A stretch of DNA of 63,760 nucleotides, counting the filler, from Sluysia triapertura (Eukaryota): NCBI GenBank assembly GCA_046118255.1. It is 5 parts of 5 records of this genome, joined end to end, with 100 filler letters (N's around TTAATTAATTAA, not from the genome) between each part and the next. Parts side by side here need not be neighbours in the genome. Positions count along the whole stretch, not along the records: positions 52,487 to 63,760 come from JBJNIA010186514.1; 4 more parts are not named here. The stretch is one strand, 5' to 3'. The notes under the pieces were generated by a model. That model saw only the letters and a list, made by a program, of their open reading frames with translations. It had not been told where the DNA came from and made no database searches. Of the stretch, positions 13,293-63,760 are shown piece after piece. Position 1 is the stretch's first letter. Every line of letters starts with the position of its first letter. Made by a program: the position numbers and the translations under genes.

Positions 13293-13904
13293 GTAATTTT
13301 TAACACTTTTTTAATTGATTGTTCACCGATTTTTCTTTTGATTGCTAATTAGTACTTATTAATTCGTACTTATTCAAAAGTTAAATTGTTTTTATTTAGT
13401 TAACTTTTTAAACTTTTTTAATGAAATTTTTGAGACAAAATTTTAAAAGAGAAAAGACGAATAAAAATAGTTGTAAACCTCTAATATTTGATAAATTAAA
13501 ACCCTCCACAATGACCATTCAAATAACAATACTCTTGGTACTCACGCTGATCACTACATTATTCAATCTCTATTGACTGTTTGGATAACGATATGTTTAA
13601 TACTCACATGGAAACCTCAAAAATATTTTAAAATAAATTATATTACATTTAATTAATTATAATTATATTATAGAAATTAAATTCACTAAATGTAAAAATG
13701 TGAAATAAATAATATTTTCATATATTTTGTTATAATGTTTAAAATGATGATTATTTACGTATCCTTTTTTTCATATAGTATATAATTGAAATTTTTTAAG
13801 AAACATATTTTGTTTCCATAAAATTTTTATTTGAGATATTTTTAATCGAATGTTTTATGTCTTTAAATATTTTTTATAAAATTTTTTGAAATTGTTTTTA
13901 TATT

Positions 13905-20556: not shown

Positions 20557-21020
20557 GGTTTAGAGATAGATTTCTCAAAATTATTAATTGTGATGATCTC
20601 TCGACTAACTGTGGCAAGAATGATGTGTCCCTTTCATTAAGTATATCAAAAAGCGACACCATGTTCTTCACTAGTTGGTCACAAGAGACGCGTGGTGGAA
20701 AATGTGAGATAATCAAAAGATTTGTACAAGTGAGGTTAACGATGCCTCACAGCCATCCGTATGGTACGTGGTGTCCGGAAAAAATGCCACTAGGATTTTA
20801 TCATACAGAGCTGACATCCAAAAATGTCGAATTTCAGATAAATCCTTTGCTTCTTTTAGGTTTTCTTCTTTTAACCCATGTTCTCCCGTAATAAAGTTTT
20901 TTATTCTTATCCTTGGACGTATAATTTTATCCGAGTGAAAGAGTTTAGGGTATGGTATCAAAACATGCTCGGATAATTTCATGTTTATCATTAAAGTCAA
21001 GGGCCAGCTAAACTATCTAA
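20200..21020 (-). pseudogene. Retrotransposon 3' accessory ORF remnant (DnaQ/DEDD-like domain plus acidic tail), copy 1
   Basis: PYPKLFHSD..RPRIRIKNFITGEHGLKEENLKEAKDLSEIR..YDKILV, then HFPPRVSC..VSLFDIL; frameshifted and interrupted by (AAT)n; paralogous to 22500-23300 and 34150-34540. Confidence 0.65.
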
Positions 21021-21255: not shown

Positions 21256-22434
21256 TGTGAGAATTTTGCTTTAAAAATATATTTTATGTTAATATATCTT
21301 AAGTGAGTCCTCTATGACACTGGGATTACGCACTCAAGGGCCAGCGCACAGATGTCAGTGTCGAAAGAAATGAATAAGGAAAAACTGGAGGTAATATGTT
21401 ATAATAGTTAATCGTCAGATTTTATTTAAGATCTAAAATGATCTACTTGATTTTATTATTTTCTTTGTTAGCATAAAGAAAATTATAACTATACACTTTG
21501 CCAATGAAATACCATGTTAAAATTGGGCAGATTACAATTACTCAAATGCAACTATTTATTAATAAATTTGAGACAAAAATATGCAATATTTTTAGGACAG
21601 GATGCAACTATGAATTTAAGACAAAAAAATACACAATATTCAAAAGTTCAAATAATTATTTAATAAAAATATAATCATACAAAATGTTTAAAAACAATAA
21701 TCAATGTTACCCATAAATATAAGTTTAATACAAAAATGATTTATTAATAATATTAATCTTTTAATTAATATTGTATCTAGGAATATTATGAGATGATATT
21801 ATGTAGTAAATAAAATTTACAAATATTTTAATTTGATTTTATGTTGTAGTAAAAGGTCTAAAGTGCCATTTGGTAAAATTGTTAGACGAGGCTGATAGCT
21901 CAGTGGTAGAGCATCGAATTGCGTAGCGAGAGGTCTCGGGTTTAACATTTGCGTTAAATTTATTTTCTTGTAAAATGAAATATCTTAAAATATATGAAAC
22001 TAAAGAATTTTTAATATATGACCAGTAAATAATCAGCCAGAAAAAATAGCAGTCTAAATTAATTTAATCTAGTCAATCCACAGAGTTAATTTATAATATT
22101 TCTTAGACAATTTTTAAGATTTATAAAAAAATTATAATTTAACTTGTGTGTTTATAACAATTATTCTACTGTATTTATATTAATTTTGTTTTATGTTGAT
22201 GACAACGAAGTAACTATAAACAAACAAATAAATAATTCACATTATTTTCACAATAATAATAAAATTTTCTTAATAATAATAATTTCAATTGTCTTAATTA
22301 TTTTAATTTATTAAAATAAAATTTTATTTTATTAGTATGCACATAAAAGTTTTGATTTAATTTAATTTAATAATTCCATTTAATAATTACATAAATAATG
22401 ATTATTATTACATATTACATATAATACGCTTACA
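21256..22434 (-). repeat. Degenerate gypsy-family LTR (copy A)
   Basis: Preceded by GAGACTAATTTTCCCTGATAGGGAA (22466-22441), starts TGT, ends ...TTCTCACA like the LTR at 41242; homologous to copy B. Confidence 0.6.
21842..21947 (+). mobile_element. Internally deleted solo LTR of the tRNA-containing TRIM, nested in a gypsy LTR
   Basis: TGTTGTAGTAAAAGG...TGTTAGACGAGGCTGATAGCTCAGTGGTAGAGC...TAACA; flanks TTTA/TTTG (3 of 4 match). Confidence 0.8.
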
Positions 22435-22499: not shown

Positions 22500-23300
22500 G
22501 AATTAAGTATCAACAATGTTAATAACATCGTCATAGTCAAAATAATCATCATTATCTGGGTCCAAATCAATGATACTAAAGTCATCTTCACCAAAAAGTA
22601 CAGAATTGTCTTCATCTAGCCCATCCTTTTCATTCATTTCGTTGTCCACGTCATCATAGATCTTTTGTCGCCCTCAGCATTCAGCAAGTTTAATGTTATA
22701 TCTTTATGTTTTATTCCTTTATGCGGAAGATGTTGTGCAGCATGTGTATTATGCAATAAAGAACAAGATTTCGAAGTAGATGGAACCTGGATATCCAATG
22801 GTTTATTAATCATTTGCGGTAAAAATGATGCATCTTTTTGTCTAATTAAATCAAAAAGCGATACGTAATCCTGAGCTAATTTTATGCAAGTACCTCTTGG
22901 TGGAAAGCTTTAAAACTTTTCTAGCATGATTTGACGGATGAAATAATGAATATGACACTAAATTTGTGCAAATGAGATTGATAATACCTCTTAACCACCC
23001 AAAGAAAACAAGTACTTTATCATACATCGTAATTGACCAAAATTTTCTTATTTCTGCTATATCTTTCGCAGTTTTTAGATCGTCATCCTGCAATCCATGC
23101 TCCATTGTAAGAAAGTTCTTATTTCTCATTCTTGGTTTTATAAGTTCGTCAGAATGGAACAGTTTATGATATGGTGTAAAACAAGTTCGGATAATTTGAT
23201 GTTTGTCCGAGAAATCTAAAGCTAAATGGATTGCTACAAAAATTAGATTATTTTTATCATCTATATCCTCATGTGGTAAATTAGAACTTCTTGCCAATTG
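22500..23300 (-). pseudogene. Retrotransposon 3' accessory ORF remnant (DnaQ/DEDD-like plus acidic tail), copy 2
   Basis: ORF 22851-23297 (LIFVAIHLALD..TCFTPYHKLFHS..TMEHGLQDDDLKTAKDIAEIR..YDKVLVF), continuing after frameshifts into FPPRGTC..VSLFDLI and a D/E-rich tail just before the PPT. Confidence 0.7.
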
Positions 23301-23499
23301 TATAAGTTATCAACATCTGATTCAACAATGGAAAACTTGTTAAATCTAGTGTCAATTGAAAATGTTTGTTAAGAAAATTTCGTTTCATATCAGTATATTT
23401 TGTCAAGTTTGATGAATAAAGTATAACCATTGTTATTAATTGAATAAATAATAATATTCAGGTTATTATATAGAGAAATTTATTCTGAATCCCTCTTAC

Positions 23500-24980
23500 G
23501 AACATTATACTACTGCTTCTATCCTTGCCATTGTATGTTTCTACACCAGATGTATTTGATTGCGAAGTTGGAAAAATAGTAGTGTCCTACCAATGGAGAT
23601 TTTCCCAGTTTGGGGTTGGTCTTGTGGTCTTGACGGATTTAATGGAGAAATTTGATAATTCTGTTGAGGTGCTAACGGAGGCATTGCTCTCGTCATTGGA
23701 AGTAAAACTAATTGCGGTAATACTATATGTGCTCCAAGTAGTATTTTGAGAAATCCTGATCTTCCATGTGCTACACATTTTCTTACTTAGTACATCCATG
23801 CCTGTTATTACGTCATAGGGACATATATCTCATATTGTTACAAATATATCTACATCTAAAATTGTAATATTCCATTGAACATAATATTCTAACTATCTAC
23901 TGTAAATAATCGTATACCAACTTCTTGTAACACACTAATTTCTAAAGCGTTTAATACATTATAATTGATAAAGGATTATTTGAACAGATCTTGCTCATCT
24001 TTGATTAAATTTAATACTTTGTACTAAATGATTTTGTATATCATATTTATTGTACTTTTTGATTTATCTATCATTTGTTTAGGTGGTTTTCTCTACCTTT
24101 AATCTTTGGTTTAACTTTTAAAATACTTTTTGTTACTTTTGTCTCTTAAATTATATTCTTCTTTTGGTACTAATTTGCAACGATTTACGTGTACAACAAA
24201 AGTTTCGGCGTTCATATCATTACTTCGTATGGTCATTTGAACGGCTTATGTAAGTTTGGAGAATATCCTGTTTTAGCTATTGGATAATCTACTAATACTT
24301 TATCTCCTATTTTAAAATTACGTTCATTTACTTTTTATCACAAGTATCTTTATAAATTTCTTGTGAATATCTTATTTGTAATCCAGCAAGTTTCCACGCA
24401 CTTCGTAAGTTAAAGGTTTATGATCGGTACATAAAAATACTCTTTATCCTAGTAGAAAATGTATAAACAATTTGTATGTATACACTATTGCTAGACTATT
24501 GTAGAATAGTTCGTTTCTGCTTTATTTAATCTTTTACTTGCATATGCTATTACCCTTTCTAAATTTTCTTAATTTCTTTGTCGTACTATTGCTCCTATTG
24601 CAAAATTTCTGGCATTAGTTGTTATTTCTTCTCTTTGTTTTCTCTTTTTCCTTAGAGCATTTAATTGAGATGATATAAGAGAAATTTAGCTAAGAAAGGA
24701 AAACATCCAAGTATTAATTTCCAATTAAAACCTACTACTGATAATATTTGAGATATTATAAGAGCAATGACCTTAATTATTACATATAAACCTATTAATC
24801 CTGAAAATGCTTGTCCTATTACTAAGAAAATTCCCATATATGTTTTAAAGTATTATGTGCCGCTTTCTTAAACTGGTCGGGTCCCAGTAGTAATTCGAAA
24901 TTCACCTTACCATCTTTTTCTACAAATGCTTTACCAACTTTATCTGTAAGTACTTTTGGCCTTTTAATAGGAAATAATAT
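23500..24980 (-). mobile_element. Internally deleted sister copy of the env-gypsy element: glycoprotein C-terminus, RNase H, integrase tail, second protease
   Basis: Reverse-complement translation gives ILFPIKRPKVLTD..NFELLLGPDQFKKAA..GQAFSGLIG (matches 57126-57330), TTNARNFAIGAI..IAYASKRLNKAETNYST, FVVHVNRCKLVPKEEYNLR and CPYDVITGMDVL, in the same order as the plus-strand element. Confidence 0.85.
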
Positions 24981-24987
24981 TCATGCC

Positions 24988-25320
24988 TGTAGGGAATTCA
25001 TCACATCAAATCCATTATAATTCACCACATAAAATTTATGGAAACTCATCACGTAAAATTCATCACAATTCATCACATAGAAACACTCCACATATACACA
25101 AACTATTAAACAAACTATTAAACTCATTTAAAAGTAAACACGACCATCCCATCTAACTATCATGGACTGTCGCTATTGTTATTACGATTCATATCAGCTT
25201 AAAATATGTGCAACAATTATAACCATTATTGTTATATAATAAATATCAAATAATAACTTTTATAATAACTTTAATAATAATTTGTATGACAAAACTTCAT
25301 AATAAATTTCAACAATCCTG
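24988..25320 (+). repeat. Dispersed LTR-like repeat, family 2 (TGTAGGGAATTCATCACA...)
   Basis: Aligns over ~280 bp with 36633-36915; both start TG; internal TTCATCACA repeats. Confidence 0.7.
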
Positions 25321-29052: not shown

Positions 29053-30735
29053 TTAAATTGTATGTGAAAGGGGTCGGCGAGTGGCCTGTGTAAGACATTT
29101 ATTTGTGTTGGTAATGTTGGTACCAATATCGTGTGCGATTAAATGTTTTTGACTTGTGCAAAAGGGTTTGTGTGTTGTATTTGCGTTAGGTGTTAGATGA
29201 GGGAAAAAGTTTTTGTAGTGTATGTTAGGCGTTGTGATTTGTTTTTGTGATGGAGTGTGTTCAACTTGTCGTGGTGGAGTTGTGTGTTTATTAGAGTTTG
29301 AAGTAATGTTGTTATGTAGGAGTTGATTTGATGGTAAATTAATACTCGTGTAGTGTTGTGTTATATCAGAGCGTATTTGTTCTAGATCTTTATTAAATTG
29401 GTTAATGAGGTGCGATAAATGACTTCGGTCCGTAGTGTCTGTGACAGTGCACTTGCCAATGTTCCTTGGCTTATGTGGTTTTGTATTGGATGGAATTGTG
29501 TAAATTTTGTTAGTATGAAGTGCCCATTGAACGTGTTTTGGTTCGGTGGTATGTTGCTTAAGATGTTTAGCCGTATTGGTGTTATTTGGTTGTTTAAGAA
29601 TTGATTTAAAATTTGGCTTATCGGGTATGATTGGTGTGGACAATGTACATATAGATGGTGAAGCTACAGAGTTGATATTTGTGCGTTTTTGTTTATTGAT
29701 GTTCTTTGAAGAGTAGCATGAAAAAGTGTAAATGGGTAAGTTTATGTTGGTTGTAGTAAAGCCGTAAGGTATAATCTTGTTATTTTTATTCCACTTATGG
29801 TTGTGGGAGGAATTTTTACTTTGCGTATAAGTGTTTGAGTGGCGATTTTGATGAGGTGAATATGACGTGAAGTCGGAGGTATTTTGTGTGTGAGGTCGGT
29901 GCGTTGTATCTGTTGGACATAAGTCTTTTGTTATACATGGGTATGATTTATGTTTGTTTATAGCTTTGGTTAATGTGTGATTGTGATTGTTAATGTTATT
30001 GATCGTGACCCGATGTTGTGATATAATATGTTGTAAATTATATTGTGTTGAGTTGTTGTTATTCAAACAATCTGATATATTAAGTGGGTGTTTTTGTGAA
30101 AATGAATTAAGGGGTTTAAAATTTATGGTAGGAATGTGTTTAATTTGATTGAAATTGCTTTTAGATTGCTCATTATTCGCTGGAACATATAAGTCCTTGT
30201 AATAATTCGTAATACCCAAAGAATTTAATGCGTATAGATTAATGGGGTTGACATTAAAATTTTGTCTTACATAGGATTTTACTGAGTACATATTAGCTAA
30301 TTTAGAATTTATGTTTAAATCATTTCTAATTTGGTTGAACTTTGTTGAAATAAAAAATTTTAAGATTTTAAAAATAATATCAAAATTATTATTGAAAATT
30401 ACACAAAAAATTACTTTATCTCCGGGAGTGTCACCTTTTCCTTGGTTGAATTGAAGGTAGAATGAAGCATAATTAGAAGTGAAATGTGTGGTGCTTTTAG
30501 AAGTACTTTTCTCCTGACACCATTGTTGTGATGGCCGGTATACGTTATAATTGAAATTGAATTTAGATTTATAATAAAATTTATAATTAAATGTTATTAG
30601 TTTTGAAACATTAAAATTTAACGAAAAGAAATAAACAATATAGTAGTTATATTCACATTTAAAAATAAAATCAACGTTTAAATTACAAAAGGGTTTGTAA
30701 TAATACAGCAATTTAGGCTTCCAAAGCCCATACAT
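29053..30735 (-). CDS. Orphan 560-aa ORF rich in N/H/T/K/P, low complexity
   Basis: Longest uninterrupted ORF in the window; strong C/A strand skew; no family recognised. Confidence 0.4.
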   Translation of the reverse strand: MYGLWKPKLLYYYKPFCNLNVDFIFKCEYNYYIVYFFSLNFNVSKLITFNYKFYYKSKFNFNYNVYRPSQQWCQEKSTSKSTTHFTSNYASFYLQFNQGKGDTPGDKVIFCVIFNNNFDIIFKILKFFISTKFNQIRNDLNINSKLANMYSVKSYVRQNFNVNPINLYALNSLGITNYYKDLYVPANNEQSKSNFNQIKHIPTINFKPLNSFSQKHPLNISDCLNNNNSTQYNLQHIISQHRVTINNINNHNHTLTKAINKHKSYPCITKDLCPTDTTHRPHTQNTSDFTSYSPHQNRHSNTYTQSKNSSHNHKWNKNNKIIPYGFTTTNINLPIYTFSCYSSKNINKQKRTNINSVASPSICTLSTPIIPDKPNFKSILKQPNNTNTAKHLKQHTTEPKHVQWALHTNKIYTIPSNTKPHKPRNIGKCTVTDTTDRSHLSHLINQFNKDLEQIRSDITQHYTSINLPSNQLLHNNITSNSNKHTTPPRQVEHTPSQKQITTPNIHYKNFFPHLTPNANTTHKPFCTSQKHLIAHDIGTNITNTNKCLTQATRRPLSHTI

Positions 30736-30999
30736 TTCACGTGGTTTAGCAAAAGAAACGATATAATGAGTAACTGTCCAAACGTCCGTGCACAGTCACG
30801 ATCGGAGAGTCAGTAGAGTATCGCACTGTATGCATTCTTCCAAAACATAAGGGCATGTGTATGCCGATGTATTATTATGATCAAAATTAAAATATTCTAT
30901 GTTATCTTTATTAAGATCAACTTTAAAATACTTTATATTATCTTTTTACGATTTCGCGTTTAAATGAAAACGTTAAAAGTTATATTTTGCTCTGTTACT

Positions 31000-37119: not shown

Positions 37120-37730
37120 CAAACGAACCATTTTACAAACATTTTGAGTTCACTTATGGATTCTCGTCTTTCATAGCAATCATCTCATATTTCATTCATC
37201 ACATTTACATCACTCTAAGTATTAAAAATTTAACATTCCATAAATAAAAATTAATTAAAATTTGACTTTGATCAATAATAAACCTTTTTTTTTCATAAAC
37301 TCGGTCAAACTATACCTTCACCGAAAGGTTTTTAAAACAAATATATTCACAGTTTCACATTCAAACGTTATTCACAAAAATGTAATTAAGTTAATTAATC
37401 TATTTTTGACTTATTATTATTTTACGTTTAAAGGTTTTATTTAGACTCTAAAGTTATTTATTAATTTACAAGACATTCAGGAGACTAGATGTTTCACCTT
37501 CAATAATATAATTCCTTTTTCTACTTCTTCATGTTAATTATTATTACACCAGATTTACTATTAACAGTGATATTATTTCTGAAATATTTTAAAGATTTCA
37601 GAAGCTTATCAAGGTTTCAAGTCTCATAAAGGTTCATAAAGTCTCAGATGATCTTAAGGTTTACAAGTTCAAAGGTTGTCTAATGCCTTTAAAAGTTTTC
37701 CAAGTCCATATCAAGCTTCCCCAATGTCTC
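37120..37730 (+). repeat. Dispersed ~600-bp repeat (copy 1)
   Basis: Colinear similarity to 52488-53165, e.g. CATAGCAATCATCTCATAT, AACTCGGTCA, CTAGATGTTT(T)CACCTTCA, ACAAGTTCAAAG. Confidence 0.75.
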
Positions 37731-38123
37731 ATGTGGTGCCATCCTCAAAATTTATAAAATTTCATAATCAACCTATTCACTTCACTGTTACTTTCCCACA
37801 TTAACATAAACTATAAATCATGCTCTCTAAATTCCAAACCTCACACTAAAATCATTTGTATCAATATCACAGTTCCTTTCCCTCTGATTATCATCCACAC
37901 CATCATCATCACTCTCAATTTTACCTTTACTATTTTATTATTTCTATAATTTTTATTATTATTATAATTGTCATTACTTTAATTATTTTTATTGTTTTTA
38001 TATATCTATATATCTTAAATACATCTAATTTATTTACATAATCTATTTTTAGCTTTTAAACAAGATAAAAATGAAGAATATATGTAGCGAAGACGACGAA
38101 TTGTTAGAAACTCGTTTCAATGA

Positions 38124-38630
38124 GGTTACAAATCCTTTAAATCCTATTTTAATGAACAAGTAGCAATTGCGTTTTGTGAACAAGTTATTAATGAAGTTGA
38201 AAAGTTTACTCAAAATTTGCCAGCAGATTTAACCATTGGTGTTTTAAAGAAGTTATTAGAATCAAAATTAAATGTTCCCGACCTAAATCAAAAATTAATC
38301 TTATACGGGATACTAGCTGATAATGTTACTCTAGGTGAATTAAAGTTAAATAAATCCTGTAAAGCAATGGGTGTTAGCTTATCTCAAAATGAAAGTGAAA
38401 GTTTATTTAAAATGGAAGCTGATGTTGAAGCTGTTTTACTTGCTCATTTAGATAAAATATTTAAAAAGATTTCGATAGTTCAGACACGTGACATGAATAC
38501 TAATGCAAATAAAGCGTTTACTTTTGATGTTAGTATGATATATCATAAGGCAATTATGACAGAAACCGTCGATTATGGGGTCCTGCAAATGCAGATTAAT
38601 CTCCAAGACGAGCAACTTTCTGGCCAGTAA
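38124..38630 (+). CDS. BAG1-like protein (ubiquitin-like domain plus helical BAG-like region); start unclear, possibly a pseudogene
   Basis: TIGVLKKLLESKLNVPDLNQKLILYG.LADNVTLGELKL is a UBL fold; the following SESLFKMEADVE..HLDKIFKKISIVQ resembles the BAG1 linker and first helix. The upstream ATG at 38071 is out of frame. Confidence 0.5.
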   Translation, partial: GYKSFKSYFNEQVAIAFCEQVINEVEKFTQNLPADLTIGVLKKLLESKLNVPDLNQKLILYGILADNVTLGELKLNKSCKAMGVSLSQNESESLFKMEADVEAVLLAHLDKIFKKISIVQTRDMNTNANKAFTFDVSMIYHKAIMTETVDYGVLQMQINLQDEQLSGQ

Positions 38631-50629: not shown

Positions 50630-51238
50630 TGTTCTTAAAGAACGAAATTTGCTTCTCAAACGTCAAGAAAATGATCCATTTTTGAAATGAATTATTACTG
50701 GCGACGAGAAATGGGTTGTTTACAAAAAATGTTAAGCGCAAGAGATGAACCAGCTCAAACTATTTCAAAGGCCGATATCTGTTTGGTGGGATTCCGCGGG
50801 CAATACCACGATTAATCATGAAGTTTATTGTGATCAACTGGACAAATTGAACGATTCACTCAAACAGAAAAGACTAGAATTGACCAATAGAAAATGTATA
50901 GGTTCCACTATAATAATGCGAGACCTCAGACAAGTTTGGCATCTGGCCAAAAGCTTTTGCAACATATTCTTCAGATTTGGCCCCTTCAGACTATTACATG
51001 TTCCAGTTTCAGCAAAATTCTTTGGACAGGAAGACCTTCACTTCACATCAGGACGTCAAATGTCACTTGAACCAATTTTTTGCCAAAACAGATCAGAAGT
51101 TTTATGAGCGTGGAAGCATTCTTCTGCCCGAAAGATGGCAAAATGGATAATATATAATTTAACAAACTGTTTATAGACTAAAAAATATCTTGTTTCATTT
51201 TCACCAAAGAAACGAAATTATTTTCCGAACTCAATGTA
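50630..51238 (+). mobile_element. Mariner transposase remnant with 3' TIR
   Basis: NDPFLK*IITGDEKWV, VWWD, VYCDQLDKL, NNARP, YSSDLAPSDY (YSPDLAPSDY motif), LPERWQ; TIR-like AAACGAAATTATTTTCCGAACTCAAT. Confidence 0.9.
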
Positions 51239-52385: not shown

Positions 52386-52487
52386 TNNNNNNNNNNNNNN
52401 NNNNNNNNNNNNNNNNNNNNNNNNNNNNNNTTAATTAATTAANNNNNNNNNNNNNNNNNNNNNNNNNNNNNNNNNNNNNNNNNNNNC

Positions 52488-53165
52488 AAACAAACCACTC
52501 TACAAACATTTCAAACTCACTTCTAGATTCTCCTCTTCCATAGCAATCATCTCATATTCAATTCATTATATTTGTATCATTCTAAGTATAAAAATGTCAA
52601 CATTTCATAATTAAGAATTAATTAAAATTTGAATTTGCTCAATATTAAGGCTTTCCTTGTATGAACTCGGTCACACCATACCTTCATCGAAATGTCTTTT
52701 CAAAATAAATGCATACACAATTTCAAATTTAATATAGCATTCCGCATTCAAACTTTATTCACGAAAATGTATTTTTCCTTAATTAATTAAGATTTTAATT
52801 ACGATTTTAGACTTAATTTTATTTTATGTTTAAAGGTTTAATTAAGGTCCTAGAGTTATTTAGTAGTTTATGAGGTATTCATAAGACTCTAGATGTTTTC
52901 ACCTTCACCGCCCTGATTCCTTTATCTACTTCATTATGTTAATTATTACCATAGGAGATTTATCTTTGATACCAATAACAATGATTTTATTTCTCAAATA
53001 TTTTAAATACTTTATAAGGTTACTAAAGGATCTCAAATGCTTATCGATGTTCCAAGAGTACTTAAAGGTTACTAAGGTCTTAAATGATCTTAAGGCTCAC
53101 AAGTTCAAAGTTACCTTAATGCTTTGAAAGATTTTCAAAGTCCATCTCAAACTTCCATCTCATGT
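52488..53165 (+). repeat. Dispersed ~600-bp repeat (copy 2)
   Basis: Homologous to 37120-37730. Confidence 0.75.
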
Positions 53166-53339
53166 CTCAAACTCTTATATAGGTGTGGGGAGGGCTTTTT
53201 ATACCTTAAAATTAACAAATTATAATTATTTTTGTTTATTTCTTTTCTTTGTAAACAGTTATTATAAAAATGAAATTTTGAAACTGTAAATAATGCAATC
53301 TAAATAAAAATTTGTAAATAATTTAAATTTAAGTGAAAA

Positions 53340-54100
53340 TTTGTAAAAAATGAAGCAATGTTAATAAATAAACTTAAGAATGGTCTACGACCCGAATTGC
53401 AAGTATTTGTAAGTTTAAGAGATAATATACCGTTTAAAGTAGTGGTAAAGACATTAAGGGGTATCGAAATATCACAAAAAGAAACTGAAAAACCACGAAA
53501 AGAAAAAGATAACATAAATTATATAGATAATAATGTTACAACTATTAGGTTACACCTAAAAACAAGTCTAGAGATTATTTCGAGGATAGTGATTTTGAAA
53601 CAAATAAATTTCAAGAAAATAAAAGAGGTTTAAATAGCTATAATTCAAGAAACAATTATCACAATCAAGGAAAAAATTACCAAAATTCAGGGAGAGATTA
53701 TCACCTTTCAGACAGAAACTATCAAAATACAAGAAGAACTACAAGAGGATTTGCAAGAAACTATTCGAACAATGCTTCCAGAGATTATGAGCAACGACTA
53801 CTTCCAAGATGATAGACAAAAAAATAAAAGTCCATCTAGACCAAATTATAATAATTACAAAACAAGAACTAATACAGAAGGAGAAATAATATGTCATGGT
53901 TATAACAAACCAGAATACTATGCTCGCAATTGCAACAAATTGAAATCCGAAACTTTCAAACAAAATTTCAATAAAAATAGACAAAGCTCTCCAGGAAGAG
54001 TAAAGTTTGAAGGCAAGGGACAGATCACTTGTAATTACGATGAAGATTACGAAGATTCTGGTTATGAAAAATATCCAAGAGGAAATGTTACGTAGAGCAA
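53340..54100 (+). pseudogene. gag: Gag, C-terminal part
   Basis: LKNGLRPELQ helix, heptad-like RNYQN repeats (53650-53740), decayed zinc knuckle ICHGYNKPEYYARNC (CX2CX4HX4C). Confidence 0.7.
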
Positions 54101-54689
54101 AGTTAGATAGTATGGATATGCACAAAGAAAGGAGAAAAACAAAGATAGATCAAGAAGAGGATGAAACATTCATTAATTACTTTTTTCGGAAAAAGGAGAA
54201 TGAAGATAAAAAGAGAATAGTGAAAGTAGTAAAGGAACAACAGAAACTGACCACACAAGAAATAGAAGAAAAGAAAAGAGCCGAAGCAATTATTAAAAGA
54301 TGGGAAAAAGATAATAATATAATAAACGAAGAAGAGTTAAACACCCAAGCAGATGAATCAATTAATGAAGATGACTTAGTTGATGATATAATTGAGGATA
54401 TCGATTCGATAATTATATTAGGTAATGAAGAGGAAGAGCCAATAGTTGACTTAGATGATAAAAGAAAAACGTACACTCCCGAACCATCAGGCATTTCTTA
54501 CTGAATTAGAAAATGATGATGATATCGATAGAAATTTGGATAAATTTTTGAATTTAGACTTAAATTTGTTTAATACGCAGAGTATCAAACCAAGCTTAGT
54601 TATATTAAGTGAAGCCAGCAATCCTCATCAATATAAGGCAAGAAAACTATTAAAAAAGATTGCATTAATGGAAAGAAAAATAGATCCAC

Positions 54690-54890
54690 GAATGTTAATG
54701 AAAATTAATATATCTTTAAATGGACTTATCAATATTTTCATGGAATTACCAGTAATTTCCTTGATTTCAAGACATTATTAACATAATAAAATCGAATGAT
54801 CCATCCATTTTGAACGTAGACTTATTCTATGATAATATATATTTAATACATACAGATTTTCTTAATAATTATGTTTATCCATTAGGAAAC
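54690..54890 (+). pseudogene. Ubiquitin-like domain within the retrotransposon polyprotein
   Basis: Paralog at 42132-42310 reads MKISIII..TELSV..LYFYGRKLLPNDYINDYGY, compared with ubiquitin LIFAGKQLEDGRTLSDYNI. Confidence 0.45.
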
Positions 54891-55687
54891 CACGAAAAAA
54901 TAATAAAAGCTGTTACTACTAACAAGACTGCCGAATACGAAACCTTATTCCAAAATAAATCGGATGATGAAGTAAACGCGAACCCTCAGACAATTAATGG
55001 ATGAAAATGATAGTGAAATAACGAAAAATAATGATAATGAAATAACTAAAAATAATGACACAATAGAAGAACCTGATTATATGGTGAATCTTAACAAAAA
55101 TCCAAACATTGAAACCAGCGACAAGGAAACAAATACAATTAAAAGATGGCCCTGTCGGCCAAGAAAAAGTGAAGAAGATATATTAATAACGCTGAATCCT
55201 GTTCGAAAAAAACGTTATAGATTTGACAAAAATAATAGACGAAAATGATGAAGAACCAATGGAATTAGATACAAACATAGTGTATGCGTTTTTATCTAAT
55301 ACGTTTACAAACTTCAGTAAGTATAAGAAATTATTACCCAAACTAAAGAGTACAATAATAAAACTTATAAAACAATTAGAGAAATATAAGGACAAATATG
55401 TTATTGATTTTATAGAGAATGGAGAGTATAAATCAATTATTAATAAACAACTTAGTAAGGGAATAAATAGAGAAAGATTTAAAATAATTTTAGCTTACGC
55501 CGTGTTTCAATGCAATAAGGAAAGGATAATTGATAAGAATAAGATAAATAAGGTTTTGTTAATAAGAAAACAAAGTTATGGATTGAAGAACAAGGAGGAT
55601 TGAGAAAAGAGAATCAAAAAATCGACGAAACGTCAAAATAACATGTTAAATACTGCTATACCACGATTAGGAAACTCAGAAAACAAT

Positions 55688-57460
55688 ATGCTCTTTGTGA
55701 TAATATTGTTATCTATGTTTGGTATAAACAAATCTTGTGCAATAAAAGCCTCTGACTGTAATCAACCACAAGTTGGCAGGAAATTCTCATTACTTGGCCC
55801 GGAATCAAGACCAAGCAGGATCCAAATAAAATAAACTAAAATCTTTAGTACATATCAAGAAGGAAATCTAATAACAGCTCTGGTTAGAGAATGTTTGGTA
55901 AAAAGATCAGTGGTGATATGGTATTATGGTCATCATAGCCATTCATCGATAACAGAATTACCACATGTATTAAAACCATTCAAGATTTTGTCGAATAATT
56001 GTAGAGATGCCTTCGAAACAGGATATATCGGATTGGTAAAAGGTGATAAATTACGAGTGAGAAATAATGAAAAAATTATTTATAACATTAGAACTGCCGG
56101 AAATGTACTAACAGATGGGACTTGCGAATAAGGATCAATCGAGTATGAAGGGAAGATTTATCATAATGTAGTCGCTCAAGAAACTTTTGTAGTAAGCTTA
56201 AAATCTTTTAATGAATGTTTTGATATTGGAAAAGGCGCAATGATGTCTAGATCATTTTGCCGAATGGATCAAACAAGTTGTGATACAGGTGAATCCACTC
56301 TAATATATGAATTGGATAAGTTCCAGTGTTCTTTAATATTTTTAAAACAAATAAAATTTAATTTAGTATCCGGATAATGATGATCTACCAATTGAAGAAA
56401 TAAACAAAAAGGAACAAGTACAACGTAAAACATTAGATCAAATAGAAACTCCTACCATTATGATGGTCAGTAAAGAAGAATATGGTTCGATCTTTATATC
56501 AAAAGGAACGATAATAAGATGTGGAAAAGAAATTATCGAAACCAATTATCAAGGTATTTACCTTTCTGAAAAAACAATATTACAAGCAAAAAAATGAATA
56601 GATTCAAAAAATATAAAATTAAATAGTTATTTTAATAATATGACAGACTTCTACTACCATCTTGGGTTAATGTCCTTAGAAAAAATTTATTAAATTATGA
56701 TTGCTCGGGATTGCCAGCTGAACAAAGAAATACTACGTACAAAACTGGCAGTGGCCATAACAAATCACGATCTGGTCGCATCATTATTACCATTAGAAGA
56801 AGGCGTATTTGGTACTATACACTTACAAATGTAAAATAGTGGAAGTTCAACTAAGACCAGCGACAGAATGTACAAATGAATTACCAATAATATATGGAAA
56901 AATAGAAACTTATCTAGAACCAGTAACAAGGGTAATATTCCCTAGTGATAAAATTATAGAATATATGAAAACTTATGGATTTTGCTACCACACAGAACTC
57001 AAGTCAAAGTACCGGAAATTATTGAATTAACGGAATTAAAAGGAAAATTGAAATTTTTAGCAACAAAAAATATATCCCATTCAGCTATGTACACAAATGA
57101 AGATATACAAGCGGCGTGGCGGTAGATACTGTTTCCTATAAAAAGATTAAAAGTACTAACAGATATATTAGATAAGGCGACAGTAGAAAAAGACTGAAGA
57201 ATAAACTTTGAATTATTGTTAGGACGAGATCACTTTAAGAAGGCTGCTCAAAATACATTAAGACAGATTTGGGGTAGTTTTTTAATTCTAGGTCAAGCCT
57301 TTTCAGGGTTAATTGGTATTTACATAATAATTAAGGTGATAGTGTTAATAATATCTCAAGTTTTCTCTGTTGTCGGAATTTATAAGATTTCAGGTTTTAC
57401 ATGGAAATTGATAATAGGCTGATTTCCATTTTTGGCGAAGTATCTGTTACACCATCATGC
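55688..57460 (+). pseudogene. env: Env-like class III fusion glycoprotein, chuvirus G-like
   Basis: Signal peptide LFVIILLSMFG..CA, then IKASDC, ECLVKRSVVIWYYGHHSHSS, AG..TDGTC, NVVAQ, CGKKIIETNY, DCQLNKEIL, CKIVEVQLRPATECTNELPI..YLEPVTRVI and TM region IWGSFLILGQAFSGLIGIYIIIKVI. The motif order matches chuvirus-type G (GYDC, YYCGMHSH, DG.C, C..V.V.....CYNELPV..L.P..RI, W..F..FG..SAG..GI). Confidence 0.8.
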
Positions 57461-57694
57461 TAACTCACAAATAAATGCATTAAGAAAAGAAAGAACAAGA
57501 ACTGAAAATGAAAATGTGGCATTACAAACAATTCAAAATGATGAAAATGAAGAAATTGAAGAATTAAAGGAAAATCTTAAAAGATCACAAAAGGATACAC
57601 AAAGGGATAAAATTTATCCAAATCCCCCAACATCACCAGTGCCAAATGTGGTTTATATGATAATATGTGCAAATAACAACTATAATAATTCTAA

Positions 57695-58010
57695 AAGACC
57701 AATGGCCAACGTCTAAATCAATGGAAGAATAATATTGGAACTTGTAGATACAGGAGCAGTGGCATCATTAATTAATGAAAACCAGCTAACAGAAGAAGAA
57801 CAAGGGAACCTTGCAAATCATTTTTCACATTTATCAGGAGTCACTGGAGACGCCATACATTTTATTGGAGTAATGAAAGCCATATGCGAAGTAGGACAGA
57901 ATAAAGTTGAAGTAAAACTAAGAGTAATGAAAAAATGTCCAGAAGACATGATATTGGGGATGGATATACTATCACAACTAAAAGGAGTAATATTGGATTT
58001 TGATATTGAA
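57695..58010 (+). pseudogene. Aspartic protease 1 (retropepsin)
   Basis: RPMANV*INGR..LVDTGAVASLI...CPEDMILGMDIL. Confidence 0.9.
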
Positions 58011-58539
58011 TAACTAATGGATAGTTATTCAAACAGAACTATCGATGACGATGATGTTTACGTTGATGAACCATTATGGTTATTAAGTAGAACCGAATAC
58101 ATAATGCCAGCAAAAACAAATAGTTCATTAACTGGCCTAATTACGTTTATAGCTTCAGAAACTAATCAAGGGAAATTGGATATAGGTATTGCAGATTCAA
58201 TCTATAATAATTGCGAAGGAAAGATACCCGTTCGAATTATAAATTATACGAATGATAATAAATGGTTATTTAGAGGAACTAAATTAGGAAGAATTGTTAA
58301 TTATAAAATACAAACACATATTAATGTAGTGACTGATACGAAAAGCAATACAATAAAATTAGCGCGACATACAAGAAGAAGATTATGGAGAAATTCAAAT
58401 TAACAACAAAAATCTAACTAAAAGACAAAAGGAACAACAATATGAAGTTATACATCGGTATCCAAGAGCAATTTCAAAAAACAAATGCGATATTGGAGAC
58501 TCTAATTATAAAACACGAGATACCACTAACAGAGGATAA

Positions 58540-59330
58540 GTAATTCGAAGGAAACCTTACAGAATTCCTATTTGCAATCAAAAAGAAATGCAAGATCAAA
58601 TCGATACTATGAAGAAGACTGGATTAATAAGACTTAGTTTCTCTCCTTTTTCATCATCAGTATTACTAGTTAAAAAGAAGGACGGTACGACGCAGTTCTG
58701 TATAGATTTCAGAGAATTGAATAAAAAACACGAAAAGATGCATTTCCACTACCACGAATAGACGAGATGTTAGATAAATTAGGGAATTCTACATATTTTA
58801 CAACTTTAGACTTACAAAGCGGATATTGGCAGATTTAAATAGCAGAAAAAGATAAACACAAAACAGCTTTCACATACGGAAACGAACTACACGAATGCGA
58901 AAAGATGCATTTGGTCTAACCGGCGCACCGGTAACTTTCCAACGTTGTATGAATTTTGTGCTATCAGGATGTAAGAATGTCATGGTATACATAGATGACA
59001 TCATAATATTTTCAAAAGATTTTAAGACTCATCTAGAAGACATCGACAATATTTTAAAAAGACTAGAAGTTACAAGACTTAAGATAAAACCTACAAAATG
59101 TGTATGGGCAGAAGAAAAAGTATCCAAAGATGGCATTAAACCAAACCCAAGAAATATCGAAAAGGTAATTAAGTTCCCTCAACCAGATAATGTTAAAAAG
59201 GTTCAGAGTTTTTTTAGGTCTAGCTAACTATTATAGAAGGTTTGTTAAAAATTTTGCAAAAATCGCGCAACCTCTCAGAAAGCTAATAAAGAAAAATGTA
59301 GAATTTAAATGGACTGATGACCAAACCAAA
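58540..59330 (+). pseudogene. pol: Reverse transcriptase (Ty3/gypsy)
   Basis: [80 protein letters not shown]. Confidence 0.95.
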
Positions 59331-59394
59331 GCGTTCAAGGAATTGAAAGAACATCTCACCTCAGCACCAATACTAATTTTTCCTGATGTTAGTA

Positions 59395-59730
59395 AACTGT
59401 TTATATTAACTACGGATGCTAGTAATTATGCTATCTGCGCAATTTTAGGCCAAAAAGATAAAAATAATCTCGAAGCAGTCATAGCACACGCCAGTCGGAG
59501 ACTTAACAAAGCAGAAATGAATTATTCGACTGTAGAGAGAGAATGTCTAGCGATTGTAAATTGTTCAGACATTATTTGTTAGGACAAACCTTTGCTATAC
59601 TTGTATAATCACACAGATGAAGTCAGTAGACTTAACAGATGGTTTAATAAATTGTCCGAATTTAATTTGGAAATTGTTTATAAGCCAGGTAGCTTAAATA
59701 ACGGAGCTGACTATATGTCAAGATTAACAT
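59395..59730 (+). pseudogene. RNase H (Ty3/gypsy)
   Basis: FILTTDASNYAICAIL, NYSTVERECLAIV, RLNRW, YKPG..N.GADYMSR. Confidence 0.9.
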
Positions 59731-59949
59731 ATGTAGATGATAATGGGAACATAAATTTAATTCAAATTATGTCAGTATCGGGAAAAATGCAAAATTCTGA
59801 AGAAATTATTAAACATCAGAGAGAAGATAAAGAGATAAAGAGAAGATAAAGAGATAAAGAGAAGATAAAGGGACCTTAAACGATTTACAAGCCAACAGAT
59901 TAGCTATTATGGATGGGATATTAAGATTTAATAACAATAAAGATAAATG

Positions 59950-60870
59950 GAAAACGATTATCCCAGAATCATTAATTATACCCATTTTAATACAATTTCA
60001 CGATGAGTCACTTATCAACGAGAAAGACATCAAGAATTAAAAGTAAATACTACTGAGACGTAAAAATACAGGACAAAAAACTAAAGTACCGTTAAAACCT
60101 GTGCCAGTACCATTATCACCAATGGAATTTACCGCTATGGATATTATGGGTCCTCTCCCAGAGACTATCAGTGGTAATAAGTATATAATAGTATTCGCAG
60201 ATTATTTGACAAAATGGCCCGAGGATTATCCAATGCCCAATCAAAAAGCCGAAATATTGGCACAAATATTGGTGGAAAAGATAATATTCAGATATGGAAC
60301 TCCTAGAAAATTATTAACAGATCAAGGAACTAACTTTACCAGCGATGTAATCAAGTTAGTGGCTAAAATTTTTAATATTCTTCGACTTTATACATCGCTT
60401 TACTATCCAAAACCGATGGACTGGTGGAACGTGTGAACGAGAGAGAAACAGACTAGGATTTATATATAGCACTGTCTTTTTGCACATAGAAGTTCTGTAC
60501 ATCCATCAACTAATTTCACTCCTTTTTATTTAATGTATGATAGACATTCTAATATGCCAGAGGATTTGAAATAGGTTCCACAACGTGACAACATGAGAGA
60601 ACAATTACAGGATGCATGGAAACGGGCAGGTCTTCAAATTAAATATTCTCAAGAAATATATAAAGACGCATACAAAGCAGCTAAAGAACATACTTTTAAA
60701 ATAGGTGACGATTATCCAATAACTAAACCGGGTCAATAACTTAAGTTACATAAACCTTTTAAAGAGCTTTATTTAATAACAAAAGTTACTGATACAAATG
60801 TATTTGTTAAGGATCCTAATAAAATTAATTCTGAAACGTTTGTAGTGCATGTCAATAGATGTAGATGGCA
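59950..60870 (+). pseudogene. Integrase
   Basis: MDIMGPLP..GNKYIIVFADYLTKWPE, LTDQGTNF, Y.PKTDGLVERVN, TPFYLMY, FKIGD, VVHVNR; HHCC region partly deleted. Confidence 0.9.
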
Positions 60871-61029
60871 ACAAAAGAAGAATATAATTTAAGAAACAGA
60901 AAGTTACAAAAATCAAAATTGAAAATTCAGCCAAGACACAAAGATCGAGACAAACCACCTTCATTTCATGCACTAAGACATAAACAAGTAATATTTATGA
61001 TGCATTCCCATGGAAATGACTTGGCTCAC

Positions 61030-61320
61030 ACAATGCAAAACGTACGATTCAATGGGCGTTGGGTTAGAGCACTTATAGATACCGGCGCTACCATTTCAGT
61101 GGTTCATAAGAACTTTTTAACTACCTGGGAATCAGTGTTCTTAAATAGACCAAGATTGATAACATAAAATGTCAATCCAACACCAATAAATATCAATGGA
61201 GCTCTATTATGCTATATAGAAGTATTATGGCAATATGTACAAGTTTTAGTAAATGTTTGGGAAGTAGCCTATACGAATTAATATTAGGTATGGCTGTTAT
61301 CAATAAATTAGAAGACATGG
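61030..61320 (+). pseudogene. Aspartic protease 2, downstream of integrase
   Basis: VRFNGRWVRALIDTGATISVV ... YELILGMAVI. Confidence 0.8.
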
Positions 61321-62150
61321 TCATTTACATTAAATATGGCTTTATAAAAGTACCACCAGGTTCAAACATGATTATACCACAATTAATAGTTCCACAAGTC
61401 GGTGATGAATTAACCTTACATCAAATGCCAATTTCGAATCCACCATTACAAGTTCCAGACTTACCATTACCTGATATCGTATATCTACACTTAATTTATC
61501 AGATGTATCGTGTGGATCTTCATCAATAGTTACATCAGAACGAAGTTTGGACTCATCAGGAATTGGCTCAGATGTTCAAGATACAGTAATGATAATGACC
61601 CATATAAGGAAAAGAAATTGTTTCAATAGAAATTGTTTTAGAAAAATAACTTGTTGGCTTTATATCTTAATTGTGATTTTTCTATTACTTATAACTAATG
61701 CTATAGCAACGGAAACAGATGAAGAATACAAAAATATGATGGCAGAGAACAAAAAATAATGATTACCAATAATTATAATCAATATTGGAAATTTGAATTT
61801 ATTTCCAAGAAAATGATTGCGCGACACAAATTTGAAATTTATTGTATCTATTTAAAGCCATTACTAGTGGGGAGACCACATCATTTAAACGATATTCCAC
61901 ATTGTCTGCATTATGGATGCAGACATGTGTTAATAACTTTTTCTTCAGATACCCCAATAAATACACGAGATATTTGGAAATTTATCAAAAAAGTAAAACA
62001 TTTGGAAAATGGAGAAACCCATGTCTACCGCATAACACTAATAATGATGACGACGACGCGTATACAGTTCCACATCGAAACAATTACGCTCCTCCACCGG
62101 GCATGCCAATAGTTCCACCTCCAATTTATGAATACGCTACATATAATTAA

Positions 62151-62882
62151 ATGCCACTCATACGAGACTGGCAAATGACTCAAGTAAAATCTACAATCTT
62201 GATATTTATCTATCTATCTTATATATCAAGTACGAATTACTTATCAGAAAACACCACACCTAGAATAATTTTAGTATCTACTCAAAAAGATGTCTATACT
62301 AGAATATTCATAGATAAAATTAAGTTATTTTCTGTTCAAATAAAATGTTGCATAATGGATTGGTGTGAAATTGAGACAAGGGCAAGTAAACAGGACTTCT
62401 ATTTGTTTATATTTTGCATGGATCAACTAATTAGTGTAACAATAACTATGGAACTGGAATATGACTCTCAGAGTGACTCCAGAACTATCTTGATAAGAAC
62501 TAAACCATTTGTTTTCCGTCAAGCTTCAACAGTAGTTGAGTTTCCAATGATCATCTATCGCTATCTCAGAAATGTACGTATTCATAACCCACCACACAAC
62601 AATACATTAATAATTGCATATGAACTACTTGACGGTTTACGTTACGGAATGATATTGCCTAACGATACGATTCGTTTATATCATATTCCAAATAATAAAC
62701 TCGTTTATCAAATTTTGGATATTAAGAAAACAGAAACACATGACTCAAAAGGATTCTGGCCAACAATCAGATATAACGACGTGCAAGTACCAGTTATAGA
62801 TAAGTATGAAAATGATTCGGATACGAATTCAGAGAAAACGGCTAAAATCAATAAAAATTTTACGAATATATTTACAATATAA
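62151..62882 (+). CDS. Orphan 243-aa ORF in the 3' accessory region of the retrotransposon
   Basis: Uninterrupted ORF on the element strand, flanked by hydrophobic TM-like segments (61650-61710 and 62980-63070); no family recognised. Confidence 0.4.
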   Translation: MPLIRDWQMTQVKSTILIFIYLSYISSTNYLSENTTPRIILVSTQKDVYTRIFIDKIKLFSVQIKCCIMDWCEIETRASKQDFYLFIFCMDQLISVTITMELEYDSQSDSRTILIRTKPFVFRQASTVVEFPMIIYRYLRNVRIHNPPHNNTLIIAYELLDGLRYGMILPNDTIRLYHIPNNKLVYQILDIKKTETHDSKGFWPTIRYNDVQVPVIDKYENDSDTNSEKTAKINKNFTNIFTI

Positions 62883-63760
62883 ACATGAATATAAGTTCGA
62901 ACACTACCAATATAAATACGAATGTCAGTAAGGAAAGTATTGAGTGCCCAGCTATAGTGAAATCCAACAATAATTTCATCATAACTATTAATTATATTTT
63001 AATAATAATTTCTTTAGTGACAGTAATTAATTTTATTATTCCAAAATTTTATTTATTAGGCATAGGGCTCATTTCTTCATATAAATCCCAAGTCATATTG
63101 CATAAATGACCATATGTAATGGTACTCCCATTCATTAAAATCATAAGGATTAATATTAAATTTGTTATTAACAAATAGTAAGGATAGTGCAAATGACTGT
63201 ATGTGATTGTTTACCATTCATTTCGATTCATGCAAAAACTAAAATATTACTTAACTTTTATTTGGGATTAGGATTTTTTAATTTTTTATAAAATTAAAGC
63301 TTTTACTAGTAGATTCGATTCCGTCGCAGATTTTGTTAATAAACACTAGAAATCCTCTGTCGATCAGTTCTTTCTTTATCAAGCTGTTCAGTATCATATT
63401 GGTTCAAGTACCTTTTGTTGTACTCATCATATGCGTTAAATACTTGACTCTGGTTAGATTCATCTTAAATGGAATAATGATTCTTTAAAAGCATCTTAGG
63501 GAAAGTATCGTTTTAATTCAGCATTTCTGGTCATTACCACATTGACTTTAAAATTACTGATTATAAGTTGAATACTTTGCGTCTTGGGTAAATCGTAATT
63601 ACTTATAATGATGCATCGTTGATCATTGAGAAGGACATAACTATCAACTTTGACGAAATATGTGATTTGAAAGTGTGACATATAAACCATTTCTAAAGTT
63701 AACATACTCTCTAATGATAAATTCATATAACTATCTACGATTGATTGTAGGCAAACAAAA

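Follow-up and report, generated by a model that had tools for sequence, protein, structure and literature searches.

In the canonical Pol of LTR retroelements and retroviruses, a single protease precedes the reverse transcriptase (RT). The DNA analysed here, a window of 63,760 nucleotides from Sluysia triapertura (assembly GCA_046118255.1; five parts joined by filler), contains a retroelement with a further retropepsin, PR2, downstream of integrase. A sequence-only reading of the window had taken PR2 to be fused to integrase, to be a feature of the element family and possibly to process a long C-terminal accessory polyprotein. This raises the questions of whether PR2 belongs to the element at all, how widespread such an arrangement is among related elements, and what a second protease might do.

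Results

Anatomy of the window element

The element lies in the part at 52487-63760 and is a decayed Ty3/gypsy retroelement with many stops and frameshifts. Translation of 52500-63760, Pfam searches and hydropathy give the order gag, envelope, PR1, RT, RNase H, integrase, PR2 and signal peptide (Table 1), and the Pfam matches RVP, RVT_1, RT_RNaseH and rve follow one another as in a Ty3/gypsy (Metaviridae) Pol. This copy is broken throughout and holds no intact ORF; among its relatives, L003, L004, P0010 and P0013 are open from envelope to integrase. It is 5'-truncated at gag, near an assembly gap, and may run beyond the window. The gag remnant gave no Pfam gag match, and a repeat search found no direct repeat between the element's ends and no LTR. 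A repeat whose two copies (52487-53169 and 37120-37731) are 72% identical borders the truncated 5' end and assembly gaps; it may be part of an LTR or have nothing to do with the element.

Table 1. Features of the window element and of its sister copy
Feature	Coordinates	Strand	Basis
Sister copy with deletions (envelope tail, part of RNase H, tail of integrase, protease remnant lacking DTG)	23780..25055	-	blastn, tblastn, profile
gag 3' part (capsid end, degenerate zinc knuckle near 53890)	53330..54000	+	translation by eye
Broken accessory region between gag and envelope	54004..55603	+	ORF pieces; no convincing Pfam match
Broken gB-type (class III) envelope glycoprotein	55650..57630	+	PF24664, relatives' envelopes, hydropathy
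PR1, Pol retropepsin, LVDTGA with D at 57747	57700..58010	+	RVP E 3.1e-11
PR1-RT spacer	58014..58403	+	tblastn homology to L003, L004, L007, L008
Reverse transcriptase and RNase H, broken	58450..59850	+	RVT_1 E 7.6e-14, RT_RNaseH_2 E 2.7e-30
Integrase, broken, ending VHVNRC	59906..60862	+	rve E 1.1e-9; tblastn of P0003-P0006
Integrase tail motif YNLR and linker	60865..61030	+	short hydrophobic strand like that before PR1
PR2, second retropepsin, LIDTGA with D at 61078	61030..61330	+	Pfam and clade protease profile
Hydrophobic internal signal-peptide-like stretch after PR2	61652..61708	+	hydropathy 2.54
Broken remains, likely of a second membrane protein, with Pro-rich tail (PPPIY near 62115)	61720..62150	+	position, ORFs
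243-codon open frame, probably a downstream accessory gene	62151..62882	+	ORF call

The envelope is covered by four pieces of PF24664 (Monjiviricetes_fusion) that together span profile positions 3-651 of 653, with E values from 9.6e-26 to 1.7e-7, and is 33-41% identical to the envelopes of L003 and L004. Hydropathy places its signal peptide at ~55688 and its transmembrane (TM) helix at ~57297, and on translation the cytoplasmic tail shares one frame with PR1. The PR1-RT spacer occupies the position of Burro's dUTPase-like domain, and a dUTPase Pfam match was obtained in 0 of 5 sequences. Past PR2, the signal-peptide-like stretch recurs at the matching position in L008, P0010 and others. The broken remains that follow it matched no profile; in L003 the corresponding region looks FN3-like, which is no more than a lead. 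The 243-codon frame, which had no match in Pfam, the protein atlas or the relatives' loci, is still open though the rest of the element has decayed.

Elsewhere in the window, a host gene at 13890-15113 has a 407-codon frame with an importin-beta N-terminal domain (E 7e-11), and another at 38124-38630 encodes a ubiquitin-like domain (E 2.6e-6). A search with host genes retained 0 of 5072 candidates. Short tRNA-like repeats at 5086-5474, 12493-12643 and 21842-21942 are possibly a SINE family, and a 580-codon His/Thr/Asn-rich frame at 29053-30795 (minus) has no Pfam match. What is presumably a mariner-like transposase fragment, recognised by eye from a motif, lies at 50736-51107.

PR2 in the window and in its sister copy

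The second retropepsin is found where it had been reported, with the catalytic D of LIDTGA at 61078 and ILGM at 61281-61292; the reported distance of about 3.3 kb from PR1 likewise holds (3331 nt between the two catalytic D positions). The N-terminal half of PR2 matches the Pfam families gag-asp_proteas (E 3.9e-5) and RVP (E 6e-4), both slightly short of the curated cut-offs. A clade protease profile, built from 18 relatives' domains with zero window rows and run on all six window frames, scores PR1 at 75.7 bits and PR2 at 41.7 bits (iE 5e-13, profile 2-79), and the ILGM piece corresponds to profile 80-99 in the other frame at 4.4 bits. PR2 is itself damaged: a stop stands at 61165-61167, ILGM comes only after a frame break, and near 60862 integrase and PR2 cease to share a frame. 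In this frame-broken distal part the residue after ILGM departs from the clade motif hydrophobic-G-x-[DNE], a motif kept in most relatives. The breaks in PR2, the envelope upstream of PR1 and the signal peptide past PR2 were all absent from the sequence-only reading.

The sister copy is 68-73% identical in DNA to the focal copy by blastn, and translation of its minus strand bears out that FVVHVNRC runs in frame into KEEYNLR. The protease remnant claimed there stands in part: two collinear weak profile matches are present (23978-23844, iE 0.14; 23856-23782, iE 0.079; 5.0 and 5.8 bits), with no catalytic DTG. They are the next best matches in the window after PR1 and PR2, all others scoring at most 3.9 bits, and the DNA similarity between the PR2 part of the sister copy and the focal PR2 is not significant, its score being reached in 24 of 300 shuffles. 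The proposal that KEEYNLR is the start of PR2 has to be given up. By eye, Y-x-[LF]-R follows integrase in 17 of 18 relatives, with PR2 present or absent, and the argument for fusion drawn from KEEYNLR is rejected because the motif is also found without PR2. Downstream of the sister copy, a duplicated segment at 20785-20989 and 22851-23306 (minus) is weakly like the post-polyprotein ORF of L003 and probably represents 3' accessory genes.

Further copies of the window's own family were sought in a single sequencing run that contains the stretch and may be the window's source, hence is not independent; 40,534 of its records aligned to the element and 2,534 to 60500-62000. Among the matches listed, pieces at 81-91% identity tile 60777-60990, 60816-60994, 60952-61151 and 60979-61309, and diverged family copies therefore carry the linker and PR2; no single piece among those matches spans the integrase end to the DTG. 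One contig, which may derive from a PR2-less copy, joins 60863 to 61748 around unidentified sequence. At or adjoining the breaks of the window copy the other copies read differently, which suggests that these breaks are copy-specific. A check for an LTR or gag between integrase and PR2, proposed with the original claim, returned neither, the integrase end and the DTG being only ~210 nt apart, and translation, Pfam and blastn found no gag, LTR or RT beside PR2 in 60860-63760.

Post-integrase proteases in related elements

Relatives came from three sources: an integrase-core search (7 proteins, 4 of them at 62-67% identity); a metagenome scan (25 loci, 8 at 56-64%), whose hosts are few because 7 of the 8 close loci share one sample prefix; and a phmmer search with P0006 against 1.84 billion representatives, from which the best 150 were taken. 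In all, 154 proteins were examined. One had no integrase match, 11 scored at least 144 bits against the window integrase, and the next scored 128. No single-element protein among the 142 more distant ones carries a post-integrase protease, 49 of the 142 having at least 150 residues past integrase; because the protease profile draws largely on this clade, it may miss some distant proteases. P0041 and P0105, which show a protease after integrase, have two RNase H and two to three integrase domains and were set aside as multi-element gene models, and P0119 was rejected as an extra-protease case on account of one split protease. A PR2-only search for longer proteins passed 0 of 59 candidates, and among viral contigs 35 pattern matches included none that is related. 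The longest related contig whose DNA was analysed measures 16.6 kb.

In six relatives an open frame runs from integrase into PR2, with the catalytic motif 53-73 residues past the integrase end; in the window this distance is ~70 residues. L006 and L007 share one layout (PR-RT-RH-IN-PR-pseudoPR-ankyrins-signal peptide-ectodomain-TM, where RH and IN are RNase H and integrase), L008 is shorter (PR-RT-RH-IN-PR-signal peptide-TM), P0006 and P0023 read RH-IN-PR-C2H2-PR and IN-PR, and P0010 has proteases at both ends of Pol (env-PR-2xC2H2-PR-RT-RH-IN-PR-signal peptide-ectodomain-TM). Elsewhere the additional proteases precede RT, as in L003 (gag-env-PR-PR-RT-RH-IN-membrane protein, 3703 residues, gag recognised by zf-CCHC), L004 (env-PR-PR-membrane protein-PR-RT-RH-IN-membrane protein) and P0005 (C2H2-PR-PR-RT-RH-IN-membrane protein). 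P0013 has a single protease (env-PR-RT-RH-IN-membrane protein).

An RNase H-integrase tree of 25 rows, from which P0012 was dropped (99.8% identical to L007), places the window within a 19-row clade with support 100/100. A post-integrase protease occurs in 7 of these 19 rows, intact and in frame in 6 of the 7; its distribution needs at least 4 changes, and grouping the PR2 bearers as one clade is rejected (p-AU 6e-6). Among the 12 rows without PR2, 3 have extra proteases before RT, 1 (P0013) has a single protease, and 8 start so far downstream that the envelope-protease region is not covered. Integrase leads straight into a signal peptide, with no PR2, in L001, L002, L003 and L005, and P0014 lacks PR2 despite 77% identity to L008. 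The claim that PR2 is a family feature is thus upheld as regards its fusion after integrase, in frame in six relatives, and not as regards its generality: PR2 is optional within the clade, where extra proteases that change position are the stronger pattern.

Several other observations concern the relatives. A second type I membrane protein ends the polyprotein in L001-L008, P0005, P0010, P0011, P0013 and P0014, with an ectodomain that in L003 is FN3-like, again only as a lead (atlas 0.85). Val is the last residue of most chains, several of which finish with the PDZ-binding-like T-x-V, and PPSY occurs in the tail of three. L004:2-10279 has a whole signal peptide-ectodomain-TM module between its extra proteases and the Pol protease, besides the C-terminal one. 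Two weak ubiquitin/SUMO-like domains lie in the gag-envelope interval of L003 (1840-2100 and 2611-2880). Among separate downstream ORFs (L004:10617-12104, L006:8592-9920, L007:9043-10371, L002:2684-4135), those of three loci encode an RNase_T (DEDD-type) exonuclease domain and that of one locus a RING finger. The clade member P0003 is labelled as a Turicibacter metagenome-assembled genome, which is likely animal DNA in a bacterial bin. In the more distant gypsy element L010:3-9107, a baculovirus F-type envelope comes next to Pol on its downstream side, and beyond it lie gag and protease belonging to another element.

Relationships, fold and conservation of the extra proteases

A first protease tree (22 rows) was mostly unresolved. 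In a second of 24 rows, without L011 and two pseudo-proteases, the relatives' 12 extra proteases fall on one side of a branch supported at 94/92 (LG+G4) and 88/89 (mixture model), neither value being starred. The post-integrase proteases do not form a clade of their own (rejected, p-AU 0.010), and the first post-integrase protease of P0006 is sister to the post-envelope one of P0010 (100/98); protease modules have therefore moved between post-envelope and post-integrase positions. Leave-one-out profiles classify correctly 12 of 12 extra proteases, 7 of 7 Pol proteases and the window PR1, which groups with Pol proteases at -20 bits. The window PR2 lies between the two groups, both in the tree and by profile (-1.0 bit). 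Its best match is its own PR1, at 30% identity and by a small margin, and in the comparison of PR1 and PR2 phylogeny proposed earlier a clade of the two is not rejected (p-AU 0.33). In view of this score and of this test, the window PR2 may be a separate duplication.

The catalytic D[ST]G is kept in 12 of 12 of the relatives' extra proteases, although the pairs compared are 25-57% identical. The extra protease is predicted to have a retropepsin fold: the structure modelled for L007 PR2, from a relative and not from the broken window copy, has a pLDDT of 88 and matches Ddi1 RVP and retroviral proteases with TM 0.54-0.71. The dN/dS comparison suggested with the original claim was run on L006 and L007, a single pair with dS near saturation, and gave for PR2 a dN of 0.29 and a dS of ~1.1, with dN<dS in 100 of 100 bootstraps. 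For the same pair dN is 0.05 in RT, 0.06 in integrase, 0.25 in the C-terminal half of the Pol protease, 0.46 in the linker and 0.44 in the pseudo-protease. The last is a second post-integrase domain (L006:3748-4044, L007:4161-4448) in which E-V-G replaces D-T-G; the two copies are 45% identical and are followed by ankyrin repeats. A single-sequence fold of the L007 protease/pseudo-protease tandem reached a pLDDT of 30.5.

By eye, a short hydrophobic strand precedes most proteases, including both in the window, and resembles the strand at the RNase H-integrase junction. We take these strands to be putative cleavage sites, and the one in the window linker is a possible candidate for such a site. 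The extra proteases lie mostly between Pol and a membrane segment, either after the envelope TM (L003, L004, P0010) or before the internal signal peptide (window, L008, P0010, and L006/L007 with ankyrins between). In L006/L007 the distance from PR2 to the signal peptide is ~600 residues, and the recovered parts of P0006 and P0023 contain no TM stretch. C2H2 zinc fingers adjoin the extra proteases in P0005, P0006 and P0010 and share their moves between post-envelope and post-integrase sites. Tandem proteases 80-190 residues apart are found in L003, L004, P0005 and P0010.

Discussion

On balance, we favour a processing role, in which PR2 probably helps to separate Pol and cytosolic cargo from the end of a giant polyprotein that is anchored in the membrane. 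Such a chain has the envelope upstream of Pol and a second signal-peptide protein downstream; the envelope TM would hold Pol on one side and the next signal peptide on the other, so that both of its ends would be fixed to the membrane and cytosolic cuts would be needed on either side. An anciently duplicated protease may have been relocated between the post-envelope and post-integrase junctions, where it could dimerise with its counterparts in adjacent polyproteins and cleave sites close by. Since PR1 alone is enough in some relatives, PR2 would be an optional helper. The six in-frame fusions, the placement of extra proteases at junctions, the catalytic motif conserved in all 12 and dN<dS in L006/L007 support such a role; the 12 of 19 rows without PR2, the single protease of P0013, the lack of PR2 in P0014, the PR2-signal peptide gap in L006/L007 and the lack of a TM stretch in the recovered parts of P0006 and P0023 count against it, as do the position of the window PR2 between the two protease groups and a dS near saturation in the one pair compared.

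The main rival, which we consider unlikely, is that PR2 is a cargo effector that cuts host proteins, such as defence, apoptosis or ubiquitin-pathway factors, in the manner of the host-modulating cargo of Burro-type elements. Its optional presence, its movement together with C2H2 fingers (P0005, P0006, P0010) and ankyrins (L006/L007), and the separate lineage of the extra proteases in the trees would all suit an effector, as would the BIR, BCL2-like, SUMO-like and ankyrin domains that Burro carries (PMC6431247). However, PR2 evolves in L006/L007 at a rate like that of the Pol protease, with no dN>dS, it sits at domain junctions with cleavage-like strands, and no host substrate is known.

It is improbable that the extra domains would instead form pairs within one chain, among themselves or with the Pol protease, and so time maturation, dead copies serving as brakes. 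The tandem proteases and the E-V-G copies of L006/L007, which have stayed 45% identical, would fit this, but in the window ~1100 residues lie between PR1 and PR2, and a search downstream of PR2 detected no dead copy. We give equally little credence to the idea that the extra proteases are roleless, redundant by-products of frequent internal duplication and shuffling. Their patchiness (four changes among 19 rows; L008 with PR2 vs P0014 without) and the rejected single origin of the post-integrase proteases are what such shuffling would leave, whereas a catalytic motif kept in 12 of 12 at 25-57% identity, dN<dS in L006/L007 and a lineage old enough to stand apart from the Pol proteases speak against it. 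Finally, that PR2 is the leftover of another element nested after this copy's integrase is very improbable: the out-of-frame junction and the contig joining 60863 to 61748 around unidentified sequence would fit it, but the sister copy has a remnant at the matching place, the short integrase-DTG interval is free of gag, LTR and RT, no element remnants flank PR2, and the open frames of L006, L007, L008, P0006, P0010 and P0023 across the junction largely refute it, as the sequence-only reading had anticipated.

Beyond the processing role of PR2 itself, we tentatively raise the possibility, which we hold with less assurance, that these elements run two proteases as a dedicated system, the second being an accessory retropepsin lineage of ancient origin that differs from the Pol protease, has been shuffled among junctions and has substrates of its own (membrane-proximal polyprotein sites or host proteins), with a dead pseudo-protease in some elements. 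Some RNA viruses process their polyprotein with two proteases; if the proposal is true, reverse-transcribing elements would do so as well.

Comparison with known systems

The nematode NERV elements of Sacco et al. 2022 reportedly have the order gag-env-pro-pol, the envelope preceding protease and Pol as in the window element. Also among the closest known systems are the planarian giant gypsy elements Burro/GYPSM1, whose envelope lies in frame between gag and PR-RT-RH-IN and which bear, besides the cargo domains listed above, downstream accessory ORFs (PMC6431247). Burro elements exceed 30 kb, have long LTRs and also include MATH among their cargo domains. By the published description the window element resembles a Burro-type gag-env-pol element: it shares one long polyprotein, a mononegavirus-like envelope between gag and PR, and downstream accessory ORFs. 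Cargo domains of known family gave no Pfam match in the window; the likeness in cargo is seen in relatives, with ankyrins in L006/L007 and weak ubiquitin/SUMO-like domains in L003 (E 0.007-0.03). The difference lies in the proteases, one being named in PMC6431247 and two to three occurring per element here, one of them after integrase.

GAG-ENV-POL errantiviruses with an HSV/gB-type ENV are reported from Nematoda, Bryozoa and Platyhelminthes in the excerpted passages of PMC13524379. They too place a gB-type envelope between gag and a Ty3/gypsy Pol, and by eye the window envelope shares cysteine spacing and motifs with Smed_errantivirus_1-6. Those passages name a protease only within the canonical Pol scheme and mention neither an extra protease nor a second membrane protein. 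Among clan AA retropepsins, the model of L007 PR2 is most readily compared with Ddi1 RVP (5yq8, E 1.2e-6, TM 0.71) and also matches the EIAV, HIV-1, MPMV and XMRV proteases; unlike these and the canonical Pol, the elements described here carry an extra paralogue past integrase or past the envelope.

The literature searched, with key Burro papers lying outside it, yielded no report of retrotransposons whose protease is duplicated, arranged in tandem or joined by a further one, and the passages drawn from PMC13465017 and PMC8532177 contain nothing on proteases. Extra, mobile retropepsins are a real feature of this clade and apparently an undescribed one. They add a paralogous retropepsin lineage and a pseudo-protease to studies of protease duplication, and warn annotators that a protease after integrase need not signal a nested element. 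This clade, with its two or three proteases per element, shows that the one-protease rule bends when a polyprotein comes to span thousands of residues and a second membrane protein is added to it. This gives a testable account of how Burro-type polyproteins might be cut and their cargo released, which matters because a Burro1 element is reported, in work cited in the passages of PMC13465017, to protect planarian stem cells.
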